DNA of 64,000 bases from the NCBI GenBank assembly GCA_035479795.1, contig DATIII010000008.1, positions 94,487 through 158,486 on the forward strand, in the 5' to 3' direction. The notes beneath the pieces were generated by a model. The model did no database searches and was not told the DNA's origin. It worked only from the letters and a program-made list of their open reading frames with translations. This stretch comes from Candidatus Saccharimonadales bacterium. GTDB taxonomy: Bacteria; Patescibacteriota; Saccharimonadia; UBA4664; SCTI01. A program made the translations under genes and the position numbers. Below are positions 1,889 through 59,344 of the stretch, piece by piece (within the stretch, counting starts at the first letter, position 1; every line of letters begins with the position of its first letter).

Positions 1889-3334
1889 TTACTTCTTAAG
1901 CTTATCCTTAAGAATCTCATTCACCATCGGCGGGTTGGCCTGACCTTTAGATAGTTTCATTACCTGGCCAACTAAGAATCCAAGGGCCTTGGCCTCACCT
2001 TTTTGGTAATCCGCTACCGGTTTTGGATTATCTTTAATCACTTGATCCGTCCAGGCTTCTAGCTCGCCCGCATCAGATTGCTGCAACAGGCCCTCACGCT
2101 CCGCCACATGATGCGCACCTTCATCGTTTTCCCAGAGCATAGCAAGCAAAGCTTTGGAATTTGTAGAACTTAGCTTGCCGGCCGCTACCATTTCACCCAC
2201 CGCTGCCACGGTCAGCGAGGACACGTCGGATTCTCTCAGTGACTTGCCCTTGGCCTCAGCCAGACGTAGCATGTCGCCTACCAACCAGTTAAAGGCAAAC
2301 TTGGCCTGCTCGGGGTTTTCAATGTTTAACTGCAGCCAAAGTTCCGCGGCTTCAATGTTTGCCACCAGAGTTTCAACCTCCCGGCCAGAAATGCCAGCAC
2401 CAGCCAGCTCCTGCCGGAGCTCCATTGGCATCTTTTCTGGCATCCCATTACTAGCAACCTTTAACATGTCACTTGTCACCTGTACGGGCGGCAAATCCGG
2501 CTCGGGGAAATAGCGGTAATCATGCGCCTCCTCCTTCGTCCGCTGGCTGAACGTCTCGCCCTTACTTTCATCCCAACCCCGTGTTTCCTGAACCACCTTT
2601 TCACCGGCGTCGAGAATCTCCGCCTGGCGCTTCATCTCATACTCGACCACTCCGGCCACTGCACGGAATGAATTAAGATTTTTACTCTCAGTCCGTGTTC
2701 CGAATTCCTTCTGCCCCGCTAGTCGCAACGACACGTTTACATCAAACCGCATGTTGCCGTAGTACAGGTCACAGTCACTGACTCCGGCATAGCGCATTAA
2801 GTGATACAGTTCCTCGGCATAAGCTTTAGCCTCGGCCGCACTGCGCATATCCGGCTCGCTGACAATCTCGAGAAGCGGTGTGCCGGCTCGGTTAAGGTCG
2901 ACCAGTGAATAATCTTTGCCAGCCGGATGAGTCAGCTTGCCGGCATCAGCCTCGAGATGGGCTCGAGTGATACCGACTCGCTTAGTCTCACCCTCGAATG
3001 GAAACTCCACAAACCCATTGCCAATAATCGGCTCGTCGAACTGAGTGATCTGATAACCACTGGGGCTGTCCGGGTAAAAGTAATTTTTGCGATCAAACTT
3101 GGTATGAAATTCCAACATATCCGAGTAGGCGTTGAGCGCCAAACCGGCCTTTAGTGCCAGCTCCACCGCCGCCTTGTTCAGTACCGGCAGCGCGCCGGGC
3201 AGAGCAATACAAACCGGGCAGACATGGGCGTTTGGCTTGGCCTCACGGCTGTCATTATTACAGCCACAAAACAGCTTCGACTTTGTCGCTAGCTGCACAT
3301 GGGTCTCAATACCAATTACGACTTCGTATTTCAT
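1889..3334 (-). CDS. gatB: Asp-tRNA(Asn)/Glu-tRNA(Gln) amidotransferase subunit B
   Basis: N-terminus MKYEVVIGIETHVQL…CGC and a C-terminal GatB/YqeY domain; 481 aa. Confidence 0.95.
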   Translation of the reverse strand: MKYEVVIGIETHVQLATKSKLFCGCNNDSREAKPNAHVCPVCIALPGALPVLNKAAVELALKAGLALNAYSDMLEFHTKFDRKNYFYPDSPSGYQITQFDEPIIGNGFVEFPFEGETKRVGITRAHLEADAGKLTHPAGKDYSLVDLNRAGTPLLEIVSEPDMRSAAEAKAYAEELYHLMRYAGVSDCDLYYGNMRFDVNVSLRLAGQKEFGTRTESKNLNSFRAVAGVVEYEMKRQAEILDAGEKVVQETRGWDESKGETFSQRTKEEAHDYRYFPEPDLPPVQVTSDMLKVASNGMPEKMPMELRQELAGAGISGREVETLVANIEAAELWLQLNIENPEQAKFAFNWLVGDMLRLAEAKGKSLRESDVSSLTVAAVGEMVAAGKLSSTNSKALLAMLWENDEGAHHVAEREGLLQQSDAGELEAWTDQVIKDNPKPVADYQKGEAKALGFLVGQVMKLSKGQANPPMVNEILKDKLKK

Positions 3335-3888
3335 ATTTGTCTGCCTTCAATAAATTCATACGAAATCCGATCAACTATTTCTCTATGATCTGTAGCCTTT
3401 ATTATTTCTAGTGCCTCATCTTCATACGGTCTGAAACTTTCAGGCAAAATGTTGATCAACTTATTGGCCGCCACACCTTTATCGAACGCTGGATGCCCTA
3501 ACACGCCGAGCCTGAGCAGGTACCATGATGCAATAAACAGCGAGCAGGGGTATTTTTTGTTCTGGACATACTTAACCAATGACTGCTTAGACTTCTCATT
3601 TTTCATAAGGTTAAGAGTTTCATCGCAAAGTGGGATTAGCTGAGATTCCCTGTACATAAAGTCGGGCGCAAAACCTTTCTCGGCCAGCCATTTGCTGTAT
3701 GCCTCATAGTCAAAGCTTGGGTCCGGGAATGAGTAATCATCTACGAGCACTACCAGATTATGGGATTCGCCGGCAGTATCGAGTTTATCTGTGACGGTTT
3801 TTAGTTCATCAATCGCGACTTCGTGTTCTTTCCGAATTTGATCGTTTGTATATATATGAGCATATTCAACTGAGACGTCAGTCTTCAC
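3331..3888 (-). CDS. hypothetical protein; AT-richer insertion inside the gat operon
   Basis: 185-aa ORF overlapping the gatB start by 4 bp; no recognisable motif; visibly lower GC than its neighbours. Confidence 0.5.
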   Translation of the reverse strand: MKTDVSVEYAHIYTNDQIRKEHEVAIDELKTVTDKLDTAGESHNLVVLVDDYSFPDPSFDYEAYSKWLAEKGFAPDFMYRESQLIPLCDETLNLMKNEKSKQSLVKYVQNKKYPCSLFIASWYLLRLGVLGHPAFDKGVAANKLINILPESFRPYEDEALEIIKATDHREIVDRISYEFIEGRQI

Positions 3889-4307
3889 AACGCCCCCTTC
3901 AGCTCTGACATAATGGCATCGAATGTCTCATCTGAAATCTCAGCAACTTGCATTTGAGTCTTGAGAGGCCAGTCAATGTCGGTCATCTTGGCGCCGGCAA
4001 CCTCTACCGGCCTGGAATATCGGGGGACGAAGTGGAAGTGAGGGTTCGGGTCCTTCATCATAAAAGCAGCATAATTGTATTTTTCAGCTCCGAAAACTTT
4101 TGCGGTAATATGCTCACTGAAAGCTGAAACCTCCGCAAATTCCGCCCATTCTTCGGCCGATAATTCGCCGAAGTTTGATACATCTGACTTTATCGCAAGT
4201 ACTAGCGTGCCAGCGGTTATCTGTGTTGGACGCAGTAAAACGACCCAGTATTTAAACTCCTTGAGCAGAGTCCTTGGATAACCCCGTGAAATAATCGTTT
4301 GGTTCAC
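3885..4307 (-). CDS. HIT-like family protein (putative nucleotide hydrolase/transferase)
   Basis: …NPHFHFVPRY… resembles a histidine-triad-like motif; 140 aa; translationally coupled to flanking genes. Confidence 0.45.
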   Translation of the reverse strand: MNQTIISRGYPRTLLKEFKYWVVLLRPTQITAGTLVLAIKSDVSNFGELSAEEWAEFAEVSAFSEHITAKVFGAEKYNYAAFMMKDPNPHFHFVPRYSRPVEVAGAKMTDIDWPLKTQMQVAEISDETFDAIMSELKGAL

Positions 4308-4729
4308 AGCGCCCCCAGATCTTTAAGCGCCTGATAGTAGGCCGCCACTGCCTCGTGGGCTTGCTTCGGCACCAAGTCAAAAGTGACTTCGTGGGCCAGG
4401 GCGTTGCGGAGTTTATGGGCCTCCCAAACGGCATTACGATTGCTGAGATTTTTTTGGGCGCGCTTGAGCCGCTCGGCCATGGTTTCGCCACCATAACCAG
4501 ATTGGCGCATGACGTAGTCGAGTAATTTGTCGGCTTCAGCCACGGCACTTTTCAGGTTGGACCCGGTGCCCGAATTCATAGCTTGAATAGCCTGCCAGCG
4601 CTGATGCACCAGCTCTTTATTAACATGCGCCTTCTTGCCGCCCACCTTTTTTGGTGCAGTCTGAGAGCCAGAAACCACGGCGAGCACTAACAAGCCAGCA
4701 GCCAGGACGGCAATCAAAAACCAGATCAT
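4304..4729 (-). CDS. hypothetical membrane-anchored protein
   Basis: 141 aa with an N-terminal TM helix; overlaps the gatA stop by 4 bp. Confidence 0.45.
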   Translation of the reverse strand: MIWFLIAVLAAGLLVLAVVSGSQTAPKKVGGKKAHVNKELVHQRWQAIQAMNSGTGSNLKSAVAEADKLLDYVMRQSGYGGETMAERLKRAQKNLSNRNAVWEAHKLRNALAHEVTFDLVPKQAHEAVAAYYQALKDLGAL

Positions 4730-6132
4730 GCCAGCAGCTCCTCGGCCGCCGCCGCGGCGTCCAAAAGTACCTCTTCGCCTTTTTGCGGCGCGATTAGTTG
4801 CAGTCCGATTGGCAGACTATCAGTCTCTCCGGCCGGGATGCTTATGGCACAGTTACCAACCAGGTTTACAGCCACAGTATCAACATCGTTTAAATACATG
4901 GCCAATGGGTCTGACTTTTCACCAAGTTTAAATGCAGTGGTTGGAGCTGTCGGGCTAATCAGGAGGTCGAACTCTTTAAAGGCTTCATCAAACTCTTTGA
5001 CCAACAGCGTACGGACCTTTTGCGCCTGTTTGTAATAGGCATCGTAGTAACCGCTCGAAAGAACGTAGGTGCCAATAATAATCCGCCGCTTGGCCTCCGC
5101 GCCAAAGCCTTCATCTCGGCTCTTCAGGAAGGTTTCGCTTAATGTTTTCGCATCGCTAGAGCTATGTCCGAATCTAATACCATCATAGCGTGACAGGTTA
5201 GAACTGACTTCAGCCGGTACCAAAATGTAATAACAGGCCAATGCCAGATCAACCGATGGCAGGCTGACTTCTTCGACCGTCGCGCCGGCTGATTTAAACT
5301 TTTCGGCTGCATCCAGAACCGCCTGCCTGACCTCTGGCTGGGTGCCTTCGGCCAAATATTCTTTGATTAGGCCGATCTTAAGGTTTTTGAGATTGCCACT
5401 CCGCCCGCCGGATCGCAATGACAACTTAGAAGAATCGATTGTTGTAGAATCGTTCGGGTCCTGTCCAGCCATGACATCCAAAACCAGTGCGGCATCGGCC
5501 ACAGAGTTAGTCAGCGGGCCAATCACATCAACTGAGCTACCCATGGCCACCACACCGTAGCGAGACACTAATCCATAGGTCGGTTTCAGGCCGACGACGC
5601 CGCTGAGTGCTGCTGGCTGGCGGATGGAGCCGCCGGTATCCGTACCCAGCGCAAAGCACGCCAAGCCTAGCGCCACGGCCGCGGCCGAGCCGCCGGATGA
5701 ACCGCCGGGCACGCGCGACTTATCATGCGGGTTTTTGGTCGGGCCAAAGTCGCTATTCTCGGTTGAAGAGCCGTGGGCAAAAGCGTCCAAATTAGCCTTG
5801 GCCACCATAATCGCCCCCTCGGCCTCAAGCTTTTCGATCACAGTAGCTTGATAAGGTGCCTGGAAGGGCTTGAGGATGTTACTGGAAGCAGTGGTGTGCG
5901 TACCACTGGTAAGGAAATTATCTTTAGCGATAAATGGAATGCCGGCCAGCTTGCCTTGTTTATTTGCCTTTTTAGCCTGATCCAGCGCGCGCTCGTTAAC
6001 TTCTAAAATAGCGTGGTAATCTTCATTGGCTTTAATCGCCTCTAAGCTGGCCTTAACCAGATCCACCGGATCGAGTTTGCCGGCTTGGACATCGGCCACT
6101 AGCTCGGCAATCGGTCGCTTAAGATCAATCAT
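4726..6132 (-). CDS. gatA: Glu-tRNA(Gln) amidotransferase subunit A (amidase signature)
   Basis: GGSSGGSAAAVA amidase signature. Likely start is the internal Met (MIDLKRPI…) at 6132, giving an 8-nt overlap with the gatC stop; the ORF track extends it to 6171. Confidence 0.93.
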   Translation of the reverse strand: MIDLKRPIAELVADVQAGKLDPVDLVKASLEAIKANEDYHAILEVNERALDQAKKANKQGKLAGIPFIAKDNFLTSGTHTTASSNILKPFQAPYQATVIEKLEAEGAIMVAKANLDAFAHGSSTENSDFGPTKNPHDKSRVPGGSSGGSAAAVALGLACFALGTDTGGSIRQPAALSGVVGLKPTYGLVSRYGVVAMGSSVDVIGPLTNSVADAALVLDVMAGQDPNDSTTIDSSKLSLRSGGRSGNLKNLKIGLIKEYLAEGTQPEVRQAVLDAAEKFKSAGATVEEVSLPSVDLALACYYILVPAEVSSNLSRYDGIRFGHSSSDAKTLSETFLKSRDEGFGAEAKRRIIIGTYVLSSGYYDAYYKQAQKVRTLLVKEFDEAFKEFDLLISPTAPTTAFKLGEKSDPLAMYLNDVDTVAVNLVGNCAISIPAGETDSLPIGLQLIAPQKGEEVLLDAAAAAEELLA

Positions 6133-6421
6133 TATTAAGTACCCGCTTGACCCTATACTGCCCATCTTCAAAGTCGGGAGCGTTCAGTTTGAGGTCGTCG
6201 TAGCTCAAACCCTCCCGAACCTCGTCTTCACGCCAAACATCGACCAGTCCCGTGACTTGATCGGTTGGCTCGACCCCCTCAACATCAACTTCCTGGAGCT
6301 GTTCGACAAAGCCAACAATTTTAGCGAGCTCGTCGGCTAATTTGCTAACTTCGGCCTCCTGCAAGCCCATATTGGCCAGCTCGGCCACGCGGCGGACTTC
6401 ATCCGGAGTGATCTTTGACAT
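6125..6421 (-). CDS. gatC: Glu-tRNA(Gln) amidotransferase subunit C
   Basis: 98 aa, MSKITPDEVRRVAELANMGL…; first gene of the gatCAB operon. Confidence 0.9.
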   Translation of the reverse strand: MSKITPDEVRRVAELANMGLQEAEVSKLADELAKIVGFVEQLQEVDVEGVEPTDQVTGLVDVWREDEVREGLSYDDLKLNAPDFEDGQYRVKRVLNND

Positions 6422-6424
6422 AGG

Positions 6425-6462
6425 TCTTATTGTAGCGATTTAAGGTTACAGGAGCAAAAAAT
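6425..6462 (-). promoter_or_regulatory. putative sigma70 promoter for gatCAB (minus-strand TTGCTC-17-TACAAT); the -10 lies about 7 nt from the gatC ATG, suggesting a leaderless mRNA
   Basis: Reverse complement reads TTGCTCctgtaaccttaaatcgcTACAATaagacctATG. Confidence 0.4.
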
Positions 6463-6491
6463 TGACATTAGCATAACCACGAGAGCATAAT
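6463..6491 (+). promoter_or_regulatory. strong sigma70-like promoter (TTGACA-18-CATAAT) facing into the GC-rich non-coding block
   Basis: ttgacattagcataaccacgagagcataat; divergent from, and overlapping, the gatC promoter. Confidence 0.5.
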
Positions 6492-6496
6492 TCGGG

Positions 6497-7131
6497 GCAT
6501 GAGATGGGGCAATAGCCCTGTAGTACCCAACAAACTTGGCTACTGAGGCGTCGGGTCACCACCGTTCAATGGAATCTCGTCTGCCTCGCCCGCTTGCGCT
6601 TGGACTCCAGTCCCTTAGTGCGTCGGGTTAGGTGTTTTCCGTCTGGAGACGGAGCCGGTAGCCAAAATAACTGCGAGAGACCGGCCTTAGCCGGGATAGC
6701 CCGCTCCATAGGTGAAGCTGCTTATCCGCCCTAGAGCGGATCATGCGCCTCTCGCACCCTCGTGCCGGGACAGGTGGCCATAAGGTTCTGGAGCTTCCAT
6801 AAGGGGAACCTCCACCTGTCTCGGCCGACCACTTCGCTAGAACGATCCCAGCCTACGGGCATGGCCCGGTCTCGCGATAGGCGGGCCGCCCCCCGGCCCG
6901 AAAATGGGTGCGCGCTTTGCGCTGGACCGCGAGCGCGCACCCACCTCTTCGCCGGTTGAAAATCTGGCCATAGTCTCTAGGGGACGAGACTGTTCAGAAC
7001 CGGCGTCGGTGCGGCGGTCCATCACGTCGCAGCGGGGTGCGTGAGTCGTGCCACGCACCCCAAAAACTTTGCCACTGGCAAAGCGGGTTGGTGCGACCTC
7101 GCCAATCTGACTCCGGTTCACCCCGGGGATC
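6497..7131 (+). ncRNA. candidate large structured ncRNA; RNase P RNA (rnpB)-like motifs present but assignment unconfirmed
   Basis: ~630 nt with no plausible ORF on either strand and visibly high GC, bounded by a promoter and an intrinsic terminator. RNase-P-like motifs occur in the expected order: ccgtctggagacgg (P3-like hairpin) at 6636-6649, GCTCCATAGG at 6703-6712, CATAAGG twice at 6767-6773 and 6787-6793 (E. coli M1 has one copy, downstream of its CUCCACC element), AACCTCCACC at 6797-6806, and TTCAGAACCGGCGTCGG at ~6982-6998 (P4 3'-strand-like). Confidence 0.35.
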
Positions 7132-7166
7132 CGAACGACACCGGGGCTGGCGCCCTTCAGCGCCAG
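7132..7166 (+). terminator. rho-independent terminator (GGGGCTGGCGC-loop-GCGCCAGCCCC followed by TTTT)
   Basis: Perfect 11-bp GC-rich stem followed by a T run. Confidence 0.7.
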
Positions 7167-7270
7167 CCCCGTTTTACGTAATTATCCCTCCGTCATTCTC
7201 AGCTCGCCCAACTATCATTCTCGAGCGCAGCGAAGGATCTTTAGAGTCTAAGACTCCAATGCCATTTTTT

Positions 7271-7299
7271 CCCAGGCAGCCAGAGCCTGGGGTTTCTTC
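7271..7299 (+). terminator. second plus-strand intrinsic terminator (CCCAGGC-loop-GCCTGGG followed by GTTTCTT)
   Basis: 7-bp stem followed by a T-rich tract. Confidence 0.45.
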
Positions 7300-7513
7300 C
7301 ACAGCTTTTGAAGTGAGCAAAAGCTGTCCAAAACTGGCCGCGTAGAAGTTCACAGACTTGAAGCACTCCTTAATCCAAACCAATCTGAGCTGCGGAACTC
7401 GCTTCGCTCAAACAGTCCTCGCTTTTACAGATTTGGTTTGGATTGGTCGCTTTCAGGCTGCTCCATACGCGGGGATAGGGGAGGCCTGGATCCTCAATCC
7501 TGGATTCTGGATG

Positions 7514-9535
7514 CTATTTAAGTAGTTTCAGCAGGCCGGTTTCATCAATTTGCTTTGTGCCGTGCTTCTCGGCCTGTTTCACCTTACTTCCACCTGGAGA
7601 ATCGCCAATTATCAGATAGGTTGTATCTTTGGTGACGCTGTTTTGGAGCTTGCCGCCGAGAGCCACGATTTTTTCGCTAGCCGCCTCACGGCTAAATGCG
7701 TCAAGAGTCCCGGTAATCACAAAGCTCTGGCCGGTCAACCGTCCCTCGACCCGTTTACGCTCAACCGGGCGTACGCCAACCGCAGTCAATTTTTCGAGAT
7801 AATTTTGATGTCGCTTCGAATTTAGCCATTCATAGACGCTGCCGGCCACGACTTTGCCAATGCCCGCAACGTCCTGCAGTTCATCCAGTGAGACCTGCCT
7901 GAAGCGGTTAAGTGAGCCAAAGTGATCTGCCAAATCAATGGCAGTCTGCTGTCCAACATGGCGAATACCTAGAGCGTAGATAAAACGATCAAAGCTAATA
8001 TTTTTGCGATCTTGGATCGAGTCGACCAACTTACGAGCCGAAATATCGGCGAATCGCTCTAGCTTTACCAGTTGATCGTAGGTAAGTGAAAACAGATCGG
8101 CCGCGTCCTCCACCAGCTCAGCATCGATCAGCGCCTCCACATTCTTCTCGCCCATCCCCTCAATATCGTAGGCATCTTTGGAGGCAAAATGTACCACGCG
8201 ACCCCACTTTAGCGCGGGGCAATCAAAGTTAACACAACGCCAAACCGCTTCCTCGCTGCCCTTTCCCAGTGGCTGGCCGCAAACCGGACAGTTCTTCGGC
8301 ATTACAAAGGGCTTTTCCTTACCGGTTCTAAGCTTTGGCAGCGGCGCTACCACCTCCGGAATAATGTCCCCTGCCTTCTGGACAATGACGGTGTCACCAA
8401 TCCGAATATCCTTGCGGGCTACCTCGCCGGCATTGTGCAATGTGGCCATTTTGACAGTTGAGCCCGCAATTTTCACAGCCTCGAGCACAGCAAAGGGCGT
8501 AGCCGCACCGGTTCGCCCAATCGACACCATAATCTCCTTCAGGATAGTTGTCGCTTGCTCAGCCGGAAACTTATAGGCTACTGAACCGCGCGGGGCTTTA
8601 CCAACTACCCCCAGGGCGTTATAGATGGCCGTATCGTTTATAGTCGCCACCAGCCCATCGGTGCCATATGGCAGGTCGTGTCGCTTGTCCTCCCACTTAT
8701 GAGCAAACTTCATGATACCCTCGACTCCTTCAACCACCTCGCTATGGGGTTCCACCTTGAAACCCAGTTTGGCCGCCAACTCATGCTGAGCCCCGTGAGT
8801 ATCGAGACCGGGTACATTTGTCGCCAGTGCATATACATGAAAGCTCAGCGGTCTGGCTGCCACTAGCGCCGGATCTAGTTGGCGGATGGTGCCAGCGGCC
8901 GTATTGCGAGGGTTGGCAAACAACGGCTGACCCGCCTCTTCTCGCTCGGCATTGAGCCTACCGAAAACGGCTTTGTACATCATTACTTCCCCACGCACTT
9001 CAAACCGTCCCCGATATACAACATCAGGCACTCCGGGGTCACGACGCAGCACCAACGGTACCTGATCAATCGTCCGAATATTAGCTGTCACATCCTCACC
9101 CGTGCGGCCGTCCCCACGAGTCAATGCCCGAACTAGTAGTCCATCTTCATAAATAACCGCCGCCGCCAAGCCGTCCATTTTGATTTCAACATAAAACTCT
9201 TCGTCCAGGCCAGGTTGTAGCTTTTTAATCCGATCGACCCACGCCCTAGCCTCGGCTTCGTCAAACACGTCTTGCAGGCTAAGCATGGGCGCAGTGTGGG
9301 CTACAGCCGCAAACTTGGAGCTCGGCTTACCCGCTACTCGCTGGGTCGGGGAATCAGGTGTAATTAGGTCTGGAAACTGATCTTCCAACTGGCTGAGCTC
9401 ATGTTTAAGGCTGTCGGCCGCCGCCTCGCTCATCGTCGATTTGTCTAGCACATGATAGTAATAACGATAGTCATTAATCTGCTCGCGCAGCTTGGCAATC
9501 CGCTCCGCCGCCTGGTCTTTCTCAGGCAGCGGCAT
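7514..9535 (-). CDS. ligA: NAD-dependent DNA ligase
   Basis: 673 aa with KMDGLA adenylation motif, zinc-finger Cys cluster (CPVCGQPL…C) and HhH/BRCT C-terminus. Confidence 0.95.
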   Translation of the reverse strand: MPLPEKDQAAERIAKLREQINDYRYYYHVLDKSTMSEAAADSLKHELSQLEDQFPDLITPDSPTQRVAGKPSSKFAAVAHTAPMLSLQDVFDEAEARAWVDRIKKLQPGLDEEFYVEIKMDGLAAAVIYEDGLLVRALTRGDGRTGEDVTANIRTIDQVPLVLRRDPGVPDVVYRGRFEVRGEVMMYKAVFGRLNAEREEAGQPLFANPRNTAAGTIRQLDPALVAARPLSFHVYALATNVPGLDTHGAQHELAAKLGFKVEPHSEVVEGVEGIMKFAHKWEDKRHDLPYGTDGLVATINDTAIYNALGVVGKAPRGSVAYKFPAEQATTILKEIMVSIGRTGAATPFAVLEAVKIAGSTVKMATLHNAGEVARKDIRIGDTVIVQKAGDIIPEVVAPLPKLRTGKEKPFVMPKNCPVCGQPLGKGSEEAVWRCVNFDCPALKWGRVVHFASKDAYDIEGMGEKNVEALIDAELVEDAADLFSLTYDQLVKLERFADISARKLVDSIQDRKNISFDRFIYALGIRHVGQQTAIDLADHFGSLNRFRQVSLDELQDVAGIGKVVAGSVYEWLNSKRHQNYLEKLTAVGVRPVERKRVEGRLTGQSFVITGTLDAFSREAASEKIVALGGKLQNSVTKDTTYLIIGDSPGGSKVKQAEKHGTKQIDETGLLKLLK

Positions 9536-12231: not shown

Positions 12232-12300
12232 GGTTTTGTACCTTGTTATTTTGGCTTATTATACCATTTTTGTGAGGTATTTGTATCTCAAAATACTACA

Positions 12301-12327
12301 CGCCCCCTCTAGTGAAAGAGGGGGCGC
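12301..12327 (-). terminator. strong GC hairpin (GCCCCCTCT…AGAGGGGGC) at the downstream end of the GC-rich island operon, just upstream of the lemA start
   Basis: ~9-bp perfect stem; the minus-strand read-out is followed by GTGTAGTATTTTGAG. Confidence 0.5.
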
Positions 12328-12329
12328 TG

Positions 12330-12692
12330 TTACTCGCGGAGGCGGGTAACGTCGAGGGTGACGCGGCTGACGTCGTCGATCTCGTTGCAGAGGCGCTTCG
12401 AAAGCTCCTCCATCCGCTTGAAAAAGTCCTCCTCGGGCTCCCCGTCATCCGGACATGCAGTAACCATCACGACCTTGCTGACATGAGGCTCATCACCCTT
12501 AACGCCTTTGGTCCTCAGCCGCGGCGGGCACCAGACCTCGAACGGACGGCCAGCCAGCTCATCGGCGATGATCAGCTTGGCAGCCCGCTGCACCTCACGG
12601 GCTCTCATGGCCGGCCTCGCAGGTCCCACTTCAGCCAATCCCAGCCGACAATCATCCCGACGGCAATTACTCCAGCGATTAGCCCGAGCCAA
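12330..12692 (-). CDS. hypothetical protein (GC-rich island); a shorter form may start at Met12617
   Basis: Minus-strand ORF tiling with the island operon; charged, protein-like composition. The overlapping plus-strand ORFs look like high-GC shadow frames. Confidence 0.4.
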   Translation of the reverse strand: MARANRWSNCRRDDCRLGLAEVGPARPAMRAREVQRAAKLIIADELAGRPFEVWCPPRLRTKGVKGDEPHVSKVVMVTACPDDGEPEEDFFKRMEELSKRLCNEIDDVSRVTLDVTRLRE

Positions 12693-12808
12693 GAATCGGA
12701 GGCAGCGACCGCCAAGGCACCTGGCAAGCTAGCCATGGCAGCGACAACTAGCCAGTAGTGCCTCTGACGCATGTAGGTCCGGAAATGGAACTTTCAGATT
12801 CTTCAACA

Positions 12809-13312
12809 CTACCGACTCCTCTCATAGGGGTTCTCCTCGGCCAGCTTGCGGGCGCGCTTTTCGATAATGCGCTCCTCCACACCGGTCAGCCGCATATTCG
12901 AAGGATGATGGCTGTCGCTCAAGACATAGCCGATGTAGATCCAGCAAAGACAGTCGAACAGATACTGGGAGCCATGATTGTTCAGGCCGTCACGGTTGGC
13001 TTTCCAAACTGCGTCTGCATGAACCCAGATTTCATGCGGAACCTTTGGCTTACCGGGGGTTCTTGCGGCGCTCTGAATGACCTTGAGCGTGCGCAAAACA
13101 TGATCACTGGACGTCAGTACGACCCTGACATCCCTTGCCTCGTCGGCGCTGCTTACAACCTCGACATGACGCTTGAACCATTCAGCACCCACTGACTGAC
13201 TGAGTCCATTGAGACTCACCCCAGCCTTTTCGGCAACCTGGCCCAAAGTGGCATTACCGCACAAATCATGCAGCGCCAGCAGAATCTGCTTCTGCCTAGT
13301 GTTTAGGCCCAC
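12809..13312 (-). CDS. HTH DNA-binding protein (LuxR/sigma-region-4-like N-terminal HTH), GC-rich island
   Basis: GTG start preceded by GAGGTGAGGAA; N-terminus …TRQKQILLALHDLCGNATLGQVAEKAGVSLNGLSQSV… is HTH-like. Confidence 0.5.
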   Translation of the reverse strand: MGLNTRQKQILLALHDLCGNATLGQVAEKAGVSLNGLSQSVGAEWFKRHVEVVSSADEARDVRVVLTSSDHVLRTLKVIQSAARTPGKPKVPHEIWVHADAVWKANRDGLNNHGSQYLFDCLCWIYIGYVLSDSHHPSNMRLTGVEERIIEKRARKLAEENPYERSR

Positions 13313-13327
13313 TTCCTCACCTCGCTT

Positions 13328-13897
13328 TCAGAGTTGGATTTGGCTTGCGCCGGGCCGAAAGATGGGCTCATGTTCACCCCATCCGGGCTGGCCGCGGCAG
13401 TCGCTCACGATGCCGTCGATCTCCACCCGGCAGATAGGGCAATGAGTCTTGCCCTCGGCCACCAACGAGTCACGTAGCTCCAACGGCCGGTCAGCCAGCT
13501 CACGACGGATCTCATGCCAACGCTGCTCCACGTCTTCCAGGGCTCGCCCCAATGCCCCACGAAGCCGGCCAAGATCGCCAAACGGAAAGCCCTGCCCACC
13601 GGTGGCCGACAGGTAGGAGCGGCCAGTATCACCAATCGGGTCTATCTGACTGAGAGCTTGAGTCAGATCGACATGGAGCTGCCGCCAAGGGGTAGTTCTG
13701 TCTAGATCGTCTTCGCGCCAGCGGATGGCCGAGGTCCGACGAGCATCGACCGATGCCGGCGTGCCGCGTAGCTCGAGCATGCGGGTGCACGGCAGCGGTT
13801 CACCACAGCCCTCGCAGACCGGCCGGTAATTCATAGGTCGATGGCCCTCAGCAGCGGCCGGATCAGGCAGGGTTGACGTCAGAGTTGGTGGCGCCAT
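13328..13897 (-). CDS. zinc-ribbon protein (two CxxC…C knuckles), GC-rich island
   Basis: Strong RBS AAGGAG 7 nt upstream; motifs CEGCGEPLPC and CPICRVEIDGIVSDC. Confidence 0.5.
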   Translation of the reverse strand: MAPPTLTSTLPDPAAAEGHRPMNYRPVCEGCGEPLPCTRMLELRGTPASVDARRTSAIRWREDDLDRTTPWRQLHVDLTQALSQIDPIGDTGRSYLSATGGQGFPFGDLGRLRGALGRALEDVEQRWHEIRRELADRPLELRDSLVAEGKTHCPICRVEIDGIVSDCRGQPGWGEHEPIFRPGASQIQL

Positions 13898-13918
13898 TAG
13901 TTTCTCCTTTTCAAGGTT

Positions 13919-14410
13919 CTATGCCCACACCAACTGGTATGGAACTTTCTTTTGTATCCGCTCGATTGCCTCGTCCAGCAGCTTGCCCAGATTGTAGGGT
14001 TTCGGCTGGCTGGCGTTCCACAGGGCGTATCTGATTTGCCCTGCCGAAAAGCCCATGAAGCCAGCAATATCCCGCGGCTCCAATGCGGTCAGCTGATCGG
14101 CCAAGAGGATCGTCCACATCCGTGCCCAATCCTCCATGCCTTGACGCCCCTTGGGGAGACGAACGGGGTTTACGGGATAGGAACCACAGATGTCTTGAGC
14201 GATGGCCGTCAGGACGTCGTGGCCCAGATCGATCTCGGCCACGGCCTTGAGGTGGTTTTCGCGGCCTCCCTTATTCCAGATTGAGTAGCCCAGACAGGCG
14301 GCATCAAAACAGTTCCGGCACAGCCGGATTCCCTTGTACTTCTCGACTGCCCGAGGCGGCCCCTTGGTCCCCCAAGGGCAGCTCTCGCATTTTCCCTTGG
14401 GAGGCATTCT
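13919..14410 (-). CDS. zinc-ribbon plus putative C-terminal HTH protein, GC-rich island
   Basis: Start moved to the internal Met (MPPKGKCESCPW…CRNC…) with RBS GAGGTGA, because the ORF-track N-terminus is simply read-through of tRNA-Leu. Confidence 0.5.
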   Translation of the reverse strand, partial: RMPPKGKCESCPWGTKGPPRAVEKYKGIRLCRNCFDAACLGYSIWNKGGRENHLKAVAEIDLGHDVLTAIAQDICGSYPVNPVRLPKGRQGMEDWARMWTILLADQLTALEPRDIAGFMGFSAGQIRYALWNASQPKPYNLGKLLDEAIERIQKKVPYQLVWA

Positions 14411-14436
14411 CACCTCGTTTTGGTATTGGTGTTCAC

Positions 14437-14465
14437 AGATTAGATAAAGCCGACAATTATTGCAA
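14437..14465 (-). promoter_or_regulatory. putative promoter of the island operon (TTGCAA-17-TAATCT), abutting the tRNA-Leu 3' end
   Basis: Reverse complement reads TTGCAAtaattgtcggctttatcTAATCT. Confidence 0.3.
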
Positions 14466-14467
14466 AT

Positions 14468-14553
14468 TGGTGGGAGAGGTGGGACTCGAACCCACAAGCC
14501 CGTAAAGGCAGCGGATTTTAAGTCCGCCGTGTATACCATTCCACCACTCTCCC
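14468..14553 (-). tRNA. tRNA-Leu (anticodon UAA)
   Basis: Manual fold: 7-bp acceptor stem GGGAGAG/CTCTCCC, anticodon arm GCGGA-CTTAAAA-TCCGC, long variable arm, T-loop GTTCGAGTC, encoded CCA. Confidence 0.85.
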
Positions 14554-14568
14554 TGGAGGCACCTAGGG
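14554..14568. repeat. 15-bp direct repeat of the tRNA-Cys 3' end (tggaggcacctaggg), immediately 5' of tRNA-Leu(UAA)
   Basis: Exact 15/15 match to 14688-14702; looks like an att-site or integration-scar style duplication. Confidence 0.7.
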
Positions 14569-14687
14569 TATGTCGCTTCGCGACCTCCTTGCGGTGCTCG
14601 GAACATGCCTGAGCAAGCTCGGCGCGTTCCTGCGCTCCTCATCCACCGAACCCTGGGTTTCGCTTCCCCAGATCGATTAACTCTAAT

Positions 14688-14761
14688 TGGAGGCACCTAG
14701 GGGAATCGAACCCCTGTAAAAGGTTTTGCAGACCTCTGCGTAACCACTCCGCCAAGGTGCC
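14688..14761 (-). tRNA. tRNA-Cys (anticodon GCA)
   Basis: Manual fold: acceptor stem GGCACCT/AGGTGCC, anticodon arm GAGGT-CTGCAAA-ACCTT, T-loop GGTTCGATTCC, discriminator U plus CCA. Confidence 0.85.
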
Positions 14762-14884
14762 AACGATAAGATTATACATTGGCGCTATCAGATATAAAAC
14801 GCTATTGCCTAGCGGCATTGCCAAGACGCACCGAGGATGTCATAATCGGTATACGAGTATGCCCCACAAACCCAGGAGGGACAC

Positions 14885-15276
14885 TGGTGAAGACTCGATT
14901 TAACCGTAGTGAAGGCTTCGAAGCACTCGTCGCCCAGGTTCACCGGCAGTTTGCCACCGACCCGAGGACGACCCACGAGATCTGCGAAGCAACCACTACC
15001 CCTCGCGCCAAGTGCGAGAGGTGGATAACGCCCTTTGGCGGCAGTACCTGCGTTCAAATGCTGCTCGCCGAATACGACACAGGTGGCCGGCTCTGCCAGC
15101 TGTCCGTCATCTCGGCCGATGGCCGCTGGCACGAGCTGGTTTCTGAAAACAACGGCGACGCCCCTGCTGGCAGACTGTCGCTTTGGACCGATACGGAATT
15201 GGCCCGAGCCACTGCAGCCAAGCTGCGACACTGTTTTAGGTGGCAGCGCCGCCCTAGCCTGGCCCTCGCGGCCTAG
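14885..15276 (+). CDS. hypothetical protein (GC-rich; GTG start after AGGAGGG)
   Basis: Plus-strand ORF with a strong RBS; the competing antisense ORF lacks one. Confidence 0.4.
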
Positions 15277-15318
15277 AACGCCATACAGCCGTTCTCTGAC
15301 ATGGATGTTGGAGGACGG

Positions 15319-16068
15319 CTAGTTGTTTTTATAAGCTTTTTGCCTGGCCGAGTGGCTTACGAAGTCAGAAAGTAACATCAGCCAGCTGTCATCCTGCTTG
15401 TACAACCATTCCGGATGAAACTGGGTCGCCATAATATAATGATTGCCATCTCCTTCCAGCACCTCAATGACGTTATCAGGAGCCATGGCCGCAATCTTTA
15501 AGCCCGGGGCAACGATATCCACGGCCTGATTATGCAGTGAGTTTACAGTCACGACATCACGTCCCATGATCTGGCGCAAGTGGGACTGCGGCCGGACGTG
15601 GATTTCATGAACAGGCAGGTCGAATTGTTTCTTTTTAAATGACTCGTCATGGTCGATCTCGGCATGACTCTGCGACGGGATGGTCTGATGCAAACTCCCG
15701 CCCATTACCACATTCATAATTTGAAGGCCGCGGCATACGCCAAACACCGGCTTTCGATCCAAAACACACCAACTGGCCATTACCATTTCGGCTTTATCCA
15801 CCCGAAGACTCGGCCGGTCAAGTTTACGTTGTATTTCCTGATGATAGAAACCCGGATCAATATCGCCGCCGCCACAGAACAGCATGCCGTCCAGAGTTTG
15901 ATAAATGCGCTTTAGGCTGGCAGTTTCAACCAACGGTACCAAAACCGGGGCTCCCCCGGCCGCCTCGATGGCTTCCACATAAGCCCCCAAAACGCCTTGG
16001 CGTTGCGGATACCATGACCGAGCCTCGTCATCCACCTCGCGGCAAACAATTCCCACCAGCGGTTTCAT
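15319..16068 (-). CDS. class I glutamine amidotransferase-like / peptidase C26 (gamma-glutamyl hydrolase family, PuuD-like)
   Basis: GVCRGLQ nucleophile elbow and a downstream His; 249 aa. Confidence 0.75.
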   Translation of the reverse strand: MKPLVGIVCREVDDEARSWYPQRQGVLGAYVEAIEAAGGAPVLVPLVETASLKRIYQTLDGMLFCGGGDIDPGFYHQEIQRKLDRPSLRVDKAEMVMASWCVLDRKPVFGVCRGLQIMNVVMGGSLHQTIPSQSHAEIDHDESFKKKQFDLPVHEIHVRPQSHLRQIMGRDVVTVNSLHNQAVDIVAPGLKIAAMAPDNVIEVLEGDGNHYIMATQFHPEWLYKQDDSWLMLLSDFVSHSARQKAYKNN

Positions 16069-57328: not shown

Positions 57329-58738
<1,410 letters not shown>

Positions 58739-58798
58739 TCAAGTTCCTCGTTGCAAAATGTGAACATACTCCGCCTTACTTCGTATGGCGGAGTTCTT

Positions 58799-59344
58799 TT
58801 ATAGCCTTTTGGCGTGCAAGACTGTAACTGATAAACCGAGTGTCACCAAACTCAGCAGCCAAGCCAAGGCGACCATTGTTTGTAGCTGGGCCTCGCGCTC
58901 TTCAACTTCCTTTAAACTGCGAGCCGCCAGCACAAAGCCGGGTTTTTTGCCATCGTGATGGGCAATGACCGCCGCTAACCTTACATTAGCCGTCGGCTGC
59001 CAAGTGATTCTTTCCTCTCCCACTTTGCGGGTGTTCGCAAAAACCCCGGCCGGTAGCTCCGGAGTTTTTCCGTCTAATTCGACATTTGAATCAACCACCT
59101 TGCCTTGATCATCGTAGATGATTGCAAAAGGCGTCAGACTTTTTGACGGGTCAATTTTGGGAACTTGGCCCAGTTCCACATCTGTGCCCTGAGTGATCTG
59201 ACCAGCCAAACCAATTACCATACTAGCCTGTGGGTCATTGGCATTTTGGCGATAATTCTGCTGTACCGCCGCATAGATGGTAACGAAAATGATAGTGATA
59301 ATGACGGCCTGGCCAAGCCAAAAGATAAGCTTTCGCATAAGCAT
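58799..59344 (-). CDS. membrane protein, hypothetical (TM-periplasmic domain-TM)
   Basis: 181-aa ORF. Confidence 0.45.
   Translation of the reverse strand: MLMRKLIFWLGQAVIITIIFVTIYAAVQQNYRQNANDPQASMVIGLAGQITQGTDVELGQVPKIDPSKSLTPFAIIYDDQGKVVDSNVELDGKTPELPAGVFANTRKVGEERITWQPTANVRLAAVIAHHDGKKPGFVLAARSLKEVEEREAQLQTMVALAWLLSLVTLGLSVTVLHAKRL

Follow-up and report, generated by a model that had tools for sequence, protein, structure and literature searches.

A candidate gene for a large structured non-coding RNA between gatC and ligA in a Saccharimonadales genome

Introduction

In a 64,000-nt stretch of DNA from a Candidatus Saccharimonadales bacterium (contig DATIII010000008.1 of assembly GCA_035479795.1; this whole stretch is called the window here), a block at 6422-7513 separates gatC from ligA. 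Read from its letters alone, the block had been proposed to carry a large structured non-coding RNA (ncRNA), either a divergent RNase P RNA gene (rnpB) or something else. With moderate confidence, our analysis favours reading 6498-7175 of the plus strand as a stand-alone ncRNA gene whose product, ~680 nt long and highly structured, is lineage-specific, fast-evolving and independently transcribed. The feature is of a known kind, the block being an orphan example of a large structured bacterial ncRNA.

Bacteria in the Candidate Phyla Radiation (CPR) have genomes of ~1 Mb that leave very little DNA to spare, and to our knowledge almost nothing is known about their regulatory and structural RNAs. 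If the favoured reading is true, the RNA is among the largest orphan RNAs of the radiation. Its interest is moderate, and lies in the CPR genome and in the recurrence of unalignable counterparts at the same slot in several lineages.

Results

An ORF-free block between gatC and ligA

The block is flanked by gatC (6125-6421, minus strand) and ligA (7514-9535, minus strand), and the gene coordinates agree with the placement originally given. The gatC protein and the entire block are 100% identical to contig CAZQMU010000003.1 of assembly GCA_964594805.1, and the closest LigA relatives are all Saccharimonadales metagenome-assembled genomes. Within the 64 kb the block is by far the largest gene-free gap, and genes elsewhere in the genome are tightly packed. 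Its GC content is 10 points over that of the neighbouring genes. The description of a 1.1-kb GC-rich block is right for ~6500-7200, where GC is 0.58-0.66, but not for the final 300 nt, where it is ~0.50 as in the flanking genes.

No credible open reading frame (ORF) is found in the block, as had been stated. Stop codons number 8-14 in each of the six frames, and the longest ORF is 102 aa. The block ORFs gave no match above noise in Pfam or NCBIfam, tblastn/tblastx of the block gave no match to proteins or blocks occupying the same slot in relatives, and nothing is on record for a 94-aa ORF within the block that was used for contig lookup. Protein homology, which would speak against an RNA gene, was seen in none of these searches. 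The stops in every frame, together with the lack of frame-specific protein similarity, speak against a protein-coding gene or pseudogene.

With blastn, the block has no match in phage and plasmid collections. Against the rest of the 64 kb it has no match >27 nt, barring self-matches of its own hairpin arms, and no internal repeat family was found in it. Dispersed palindromic repeats, such as repetitive extragenic palindromes (REP/BIME) or miniature inverted-repeat transposable elements (MITE), are not supported by the 64 kb searched, in which there are no similar copies.

Putative back-to-back promoters and terminators

The sigma-70 promoter TTGACA-18-CATAAT, said to point into the block, is located at 6462-6491 on the plus strand and matches the consensus at 11/12 positions, giving an expected transcription start at ~6498. 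In both strands of the 64 kb (128 kb of strand), only two matches of at least 11/12 exist. On the minus strand lies a putative gatC promoter (6429-6457), which as read from the reverse complement consists of TTGCTC (6452-6457), a 17-nt spacer and TACAAT (6429-6434), 7 nt from the gatC ATG at 6421. The -35 boxes of the two promoters stand back-to-back. The arrangement TTGCTC-17-TACAAT, 7 nt before the gatC ATG, is kept in ~15 related Saccharimonadales loci, and we infer from the sequence that it acts as the gatC promoter. The gatC mRNA looks leaderless, and gatCAB seems to be driven by its own promoter rather than co-transcribed with ligA.

At the other end, a putative intrinsic terminator occupies 7142-7175 of the plus strand, with a perfect 12-bp stem at 7142-7171 (11 G-C pairs), a 6-nt loop and TTTT. 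The perfect GC stem with a T run had been correctly recognized, but as an 11-bp stem at 7132-7166. The second terminator reported earlier is also present on the plus strand as a terminator-like site, its coordinates shifted to 7270-7292 followed by TTTCTTCC. The transcript may be ~800 nt long if the polymerase reads through to this site. Promoter and terminator counts from simple scans are not above those of shuffles by themselves. The weight of these signals comes from the match quality and from the layout kept in relatives, not from raw scan counts.

Contigs of three independent Logan assemblies (L016, L017 and L018; SRR9179559, SRR9179560 and SRR9179562) all end exactly at 7297, which is 876 nt upstream of gatC and coincides with the U-tract of this second site (7270-7300). 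The shared end could be a strain polymorphism or a graph branch or, if the runs are RNA, a transcript end.

Predicted fold of the RNA

Minimum free energies (MFEs) were converted to z-scores against dinucleotide shuffles in three runs. For the predicted primary transcript (6498-7175, plus strand; ~680 nt, 63% GC, ~67% of bases paired), z was -7.8, -8.1 and -9.75. The minus strand of the same segment scored -7.4, -6.1 and -5.8, weaker than the plus strand in each paired comparison. Controls of similar GC and length were taken from six other places in the window (GC 0.55-0.64, 441-601 nt), four in the GC-rich island, one in gatA and one in ligA, and their z ranged from -2.8 to +1.5.

In the fold predicted for the plus strand, with a free energy of ~-340 kcal/mol, hairpin domains that are mostly local follow one another in a chain. 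At its 5′ side, MFE structures contain a multibranch domain (6535-6665) in which the sequence of L019, the one homologous locus described below, is gapped by ~100 nt, so that this domain is largely an expansion relative to L019. Within it lie two copies of GCGTCGGGT, at 6548 and 6620, and the hairpin CCGTCTGGAGACGG at 6639-6652. The best-conserved module follows (6669-6759; 82% identity to L019), where three hairpins sit behind the closing stem UGCGAGAG/CUCUCGCA of 8 bp. Next to it is a long near-perfect hairpin of 69 nt (6760-6828) with arms at 6764-6777 and 6812-6825. Further on, a hairpin at 6905-6943 has a perfect 12-bp stem and the apical loop CUGGACC (6922-6928), and two perfect hairpins occupy 7034-7083, namely GGGGTGCGTG/CACGCACCCC at 7034/7052 and CTTTGCCA/TGGCAAAG at 7067/7076. 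All local hairpins of the original prediction and its repeated gcgtcgggt (GCGTCGGGT) are found in the sequence at the sites given.

The remaining tail (7176-7513, GC ~0.50) contains the second terminator-like site, a hairpin at 7301-7327, an inverted repeat at 7372-7383/7433-7444 and an ATCC[TA]G-rich motif at 7486-7512. Its folding is mildly unusual only (z of -2.7/-3.4), and it has no homologue among the relatives. A decayed AAA_33 kinase gene, comparable to those at L019 and L029, was considered for the tail and rejected, as there were chance-level matches only. The tail is either read-through sequence or a 3′ part of the RNA, or else the 3′ region of ligA.

The ATCC[TA]G-rich motif is 27 nt long and stands directly after the ligA stop. 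An inverted copy, 85% identical, stands just as directly after the gatB stop (1860-1886) and forms GTATCCT heptad repeats. The motif is possibly a small repeat or a binding site.

The ligA-gatC slot in related loci

In Saccharimonadales the order of ligA and then gatC is conserved, and the content between them is variable. The slot is a gap of 40-62 nt in L001, L043 and L102. It holds a gene for a 130-aa protein in L002, a ~96-aa, weakly winged-helix-like protein in L025 and L028, a coiled-coil protein and an ABC transporter in L024, and another gene in L103. L029 has a 33-codon remnant of an AAA_33 kinase, which in L019 is present in full besides a GC-rich block. GC-rich blocks without a credible ORF occupy the slot in L019, L022, L041, L042 and L004. 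Genes have been called on the minus strand over two of them, at 7043-7495 of L019 (150 aa) and 6908-7447 of L022 (179 aa). These proteins are rich in Arg, Ser, Gly and Pro, have no family match and are probably spurious.

The window and these five loci have a common layout, which consists of the putative gatC promoter, a TTGAC[ACT] box plus -10 element facing the other way, a GC-rich stretch 440-680 nt long and a terminator on the same strand as that box. The box is immediately next to the -35 of gatC in L019, L022, L041, L004 and also L029, and 13 nt further out in L042. A strong terminator ends the analogous block in all five loci.

Folding follows the same strand. In the RNA sense, z is -8.1 for the window, -8.4 for L019, -5.1 for L022, -10.6 for L041, -5.7 for L042 and -4.8 for L004, and the opposite strand is less negative in 6/6 of these lineages. 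When the slot holds a protein gene, z is -0.5 in L025 (opposite strand -0.4) and -0.1 in L002 (opposite strand 0.0). These folding statistics support RNA-level structure on the strand marked by the promoter and the terminator.

LigA divergence among these lineages is 20-33%. In a tree of LigA, lineages that have the RNA stand among others whose slot is empty or holds protein genes, which marks the RNA as accessory.

In L025 (4335-4842) and L028 (6002-6893), both on the reverse strand, the same divergent promoter is followed by a short leader, a terminator-like hairpin AAACCGCCTCCGGGCGGTTTTTT and the conserved ~96-aa ORF. By eye, the leader TTGCGAGAAACCAGC...GGGACTAAACCGCC of these two loci looks like GCGAGAGACCGGC...GGGATARCCCGC of the window and L019; a covariance model gave no confirmation. 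A by-eye similarity to L022 is likewise unproven, with no nhmmer or covariance-model match, and the 17 nt that match exactly in L024 belong to a membrane-protein gene and are put down to chance.

One alignable homologue with a similar fold

L019, with a LigA ~80% identical, is the only demonstrable homologue of the RNA. The collections contain no closer relative, the nearest LigA in them being ~80% identical by two measures. Two internal segments are matched by blastn, and nhmmer aligns ~300 nt with an E-value of 1e-10. A full-length fold of the two sequences by MAFFT/RNAalifold is unreliable outside the anchors. Three corresponding modules fold alike in the two sequences.

In the module at 6669-6759, a three-hairpin multiloop behind the 8-bp stem is predicted in both. 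The first hairpin and the next strand, GGGAUA(G/A)CCCGCU, are kept, and the junction strand GGGAUAGCCCGCU is near-invariant in L019. The third hairpin differs in sequence and length, the hairpin itself being retained. The 69-nt hairpin at 6760-6828 corresponds to an 87-nt hairpin in L019, where the base UCG...CGACC is the same and the distal arms are unrelated in sequence. In the hairpin at 6905-6943, the loop CUGGACC is kept, the small upper stem reads CGC/GCG in the window but CCG/CGG in L019, and the lower stem changes from GGGU...ACCC to GGAG...CUCC. Paired changes occur in the CUGGACC hairpin and in the long hairpin, as seen between two sequences. This pattern is what would be expected for a selected fold, as far as two sequences can indicate.

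Among the six ORF-free blocks, no k-mer of at least 8 nt is common to four. The blocks of L022, L041, L042 and L004 resemble the window only at the gatC promoter region. In viral collections, the motif GCCGGGATARCCCGCT has 51 matches, which by our estimate is about the number expected by chance. The pattern GCGAGAGACCGGC-N(3-12)-GCCGGGATA has six matches there, all in near-identical phages of one family and in sequence that by eye looks protein-coding, and these were set aside as one chance event.

Comparison with known RNA families

RNase P RNAs of CPR bacteria often score below the default Rfam thresholds and carry helix extensions (PMC8172020). Because they are often missed at those thresholds, a permissive search was used in addition to the standard one. 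Rfam 15 was run at the gathering score on the 64-kb window and 14 related loci, and at E<=10, which amounts to roughly 11-16 bits or more in these runs, on the window, L019 and L041 blocks.

At the gathering score, the window yields seven tRNAs only, and neither the window nor any of the 14 related loci has an RNase P match. At E<=10, the sole match on 6350-7600 is a Burkholderia small RNA (sRNA) model with 15.8 bits against a gathering score of 112. The L019 and L041 blocks yield microRNA-like hairpins and unrelated sRNA models with 11-19 bits (gathering scores of 35-112). None of RNaseP_bact_a/b, transfer-messenger RNA (tmRNA), SRP, 6S, OLE, GOLLD and ROOL appears at E<=10 in these three blocks, and neither HEARO nor any other Rfam 15 family has a covariance-model match above noise. 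The covariance-model search that had been advised for the block therefore assigns it to no known family. ARAGORN finds no tRNA or tmRNA on 6300-7600, and tmRNA is ruled out with both ARAGORN and Rfam blank.

OLE, GOLLD and ROOL are large ‘ornate’ bacterial ncRNAs whose functions are unknown or have recently been emerging. The window RNA is like them in being a stand-alone, heavily structured RNA of the 0.5-0.8 kb range without an ORF, in its patchy lineage-restricted spread, and in showing up as an unusually long GC-rich intergenic region. Their covariance models, however, do not match it. They have conserved sequence and a long-range tertiary architecture over many genera, whereas the window RNA can be aligned in two lineages only and has a predicted fold of local hairpins in a row. 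Its neighbourhood contains no prophage or tRNA, and it lacks an associated protein of the OapA kind.

A likeness to the CsrB/RsmZ type, which sequesters proteins by serial hairpins, and to the 6S/Ms1 RNAs, which bind RNA polymerase, may be drawn in working principle only, by analogy. Those are strongly expressed non-coding genes with fast sequence drift in which the hairpin architecture is kept, and a few unpaired motifs would serve as functional contacts. Unlike the CsrB type, the window RNA has no enriched GGA-type or other repeated loop motif, and unlike 6S RNA it does not form a rod with a central bubble. Its length is three to four times that of these RNAs, and the 6S and CsrB models do not match it. 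UGGAC is present in hairpin loops of 4/6 RNAs, which is not significant among 1024 pentamers.

Discussion

A probable stand-alone ncRNA gene

The locus offers two of the things generally looked for in a stand-alone ncRNA gene: a promoter and a terminator of its own on one strand without an ORF, and excess folding biased to that strand. We conceive that the strong sigma-70 promoter, back-to-back with the separate gatC promoter, would drive the RNA, that transcription would stop at the intrinsic terminator before ligA, and that the RNA would fold into a string of autonomous GC-rich hairpin domains. It would be an accessory, fast-evolving RNA of one Saccharimonadales lineage, with a homologue in L019 and equivalently built but unalignable RNAs in the same slot elsewhere.

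Such an RNA would be expected to be made and stable, and it may act in trans. Judging by the strength of the promoter, the hairpins that follow one another as autonomous units and the few unpaired stretches that are conserved, our guess is that it could be a protein-binding scaffold or sponge contacted at the CUGGACC loop and the GGGAUARCCCGCU junction.

Several observations weigh against the stand-alone gene. Alignable sequences number two, with contigs within each lineage identical, which places covariation beyond a statistical test. The blocks of L022, L041, L042 and L004 are not linked to the window RNA by nhmmer, and a covariance model of the module at 6669-6759, run on 23 sources, finds the window and L019 only, so these four blocks may be analogues rather than homologues. 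No CsrB-type repeated loop motif is enriched in the six RNAs, which leaves the sponge idea without direct support. The RNA is dispensable, because the slot is empty (L001, L043 and L102) or filled by protein genes (L002, L024, L025, L028 and L103) in other lineages. Perfect stems and the good folding of the minus strand (z of ~-6) would also fit palindromes at the DNA level.

For an RNA whose sequence is weakly constrained, it is plausible that alignability is lost at a LigA divergence of 20-33%. A wider proposal, which we hold only tentatively, is that all six ORF-free blocks descend from one ancient gene and make up an undescribed, Saccharimonadales-specific class of structured RNAs of 0.45-0.8 kb. 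Under that proposal, the gene would have kept a fixed slot divergent from gatCAB and a conserved strong promoter, sequence change would be fast enough to leave nothing constant but the architecture and a small number of unpaired contact motifs, and the product might be an abundant ribonucleoprotein scaffold or regulator in these ultra-small episymbiotic bacteria.

Alternative explanations

The best surviving alternative to a stand-alone ncRNA gene, though a rather improbable one, is that the RNA sequence has no function. The block would then reflect transcription from the divergent promoter, a structured buffer or insulator against antisense transcription into ligA, or a hairpin-rich 3′ region of ligA. 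Conservation of the promoter and the terminator around an interior that is free to change is in line with this, as are the hairpins that fold on the minus strand too and the replaceable content of the slot. A 30-nt terminator would do for insulation, however, and the empty-slot lineages manage with 40-62 nt. Moreover, 500-680 nt of strand-biased GC-rich structure are retained in a genome that has almost no DNA to spare, and in the comparison of the window with L019 specific hairpins are preserved by paired changes, with one loop and one junction conserved in sequence.

It is unlikely that the block is GC-rich DNA of horizontal origin in decay (a pseudogene, or a mobile-element or island fragment) that happens to lie behind an old promoter. 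Gene turnover does occur in the slot, as the kinase remnant in L029 versus the full gene in L019 illustrates, a GC-rich island is present at ~12.3-15.3 kb of the same genome, and the GC excess of the block over its neighbours would suit an acquired origin. Against this, no frame has protein similarity to slot proteins or families, GC-rich coding DNA of the window folds otherwise (z of -2.8 to +0.1), phage and plasmid collections hold no match, and repeated copies in REP or MITE style were not found. Nor would decay create or keep perfect 10-12-bp stems or compensatory changes. If either this or the insulator explanation is true, the finding is an ordinary one.

Slightly less likely again is that the RNA belongs to an accessory conflict or mobile system, for example as an antitoxin-like RNA, a defence or anti-defence RNA, or hotspot cargo. 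The patchy presence among close lineages, the fast evolution and the unrelated small genes that alternate in the slot make up the pattern of an accessory hotspot. The neighbourhood, on the other hand, has no conserved partner and no candidate integrase, reverse transcriptase, nuclease or toxin, internal tandem repeats like those of ToxI, CRISPR or TIGR arrays are lacking, and target-site duplications are not seen.

The original prediction left a choice between a divergent or insertion-bearing rnpB and another large ncRNA. For rnpB one may argue that Rfam could miss an aberrant CPR RNase P RNA with helix extensions, that the size, GC content, strong promoter and terminator suit a stable RNA, and that several short strings resemble E. 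coli M1 RNA. These strings are indeed all present where they had been reported, at 6645, 6703, 6779/6798, 6810 and 6995. None of them is kept in L019 or in the other slot RNAs of relatives, however, and L019 has nothing that corresponds to CAGAACCGGC. None of the six RNAs contains the near-universal core strings AAAGUCC, GGAAAG or ACAGAA/ACAAAA. The single exact 10-mer shared between the 1.1-kb block and a 377-nt RNA is about what chance would give (~0.4 expected by our estimate).

The structure points the same way. The J11/12 element GGGTGAAA is absent from the block and no P4 pairing is found by inspection, just as the prediction had cautioned. The candidate P4 5′ strand AUAGCCCGCU, although conserved, lies in window and L019 alike inside the domain closed locally by UGCGAGAG/CUCUCGCA, with no pairing to a 3′ strand, which P4 would need. 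A P4 pseudoknot joining (..GGAAAGUCC..) on the 5′ side to (..ACAGAA..) on the 3′ side, in conserved regions I and V, is not found, and the predicted chain of local domains has no P1/P2 closure. What the window RNA has in common with type A RNase P RNA (RF00010) is the strong promoter, the terminator, a GC-rich stable fold and the few look-alike strings, but its locus, with the slot empty or protein-filled in interleaved lineages, looks dispensable, a poor fit to an essential gene at a fixed locus. As no RNase P model matches the window, L019 or L041 blocks even at E<=10, an rnpB gene is very improbable. The other half of the choice is supported by the promoter and terminator, the missing ORF, the folding and the fold kept in L019, and the block should not be labelled rnpB in annotation.

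Other features of the window

Between gatA and gatB, three small ORFs of 141, 140 and 185 aa without a Pfam family lie on the minus strand at 3331-4729. At the corresponding position, relatives have one or two different small genes, for example His_Phos_1 (L022 and L102) or Glyoxalase (L043). Because different small genes are inserted there, the gatCAB operon contains a second variable slot.

A GC-rich stretch (0.55-0.64) at ~12300-15320 adjoins two tRNA genes (14471-14761) and carries foreign-looking ORFs, which are a winged-helix-like one of 167 aa (12809-13312), Cys-rich ones (13328-14539) and one of ~130 aa (14888-15276). The stretch was probably acquired horizontally as an islet. In it, certain 150-nt windows fold unusually well (z down to -6.4), but whole ORF-sized stretches, with z of -1 to -2.8, do not.

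Finally, 58678-58800 of the plus strand is a candidate for a small RNA of ~90 nt, with a promoter TTGCCA-18-CATAAT, a long hairpin ATGTTCAC...GTGAACAT and a terminator ACTCCGCC...GGCGGAGT followed by TCTTTT. Rfam at E<=10 gives noise only for this segment, which contains the most extreme 150-nt window of the fold scan, with a z of -8.7.

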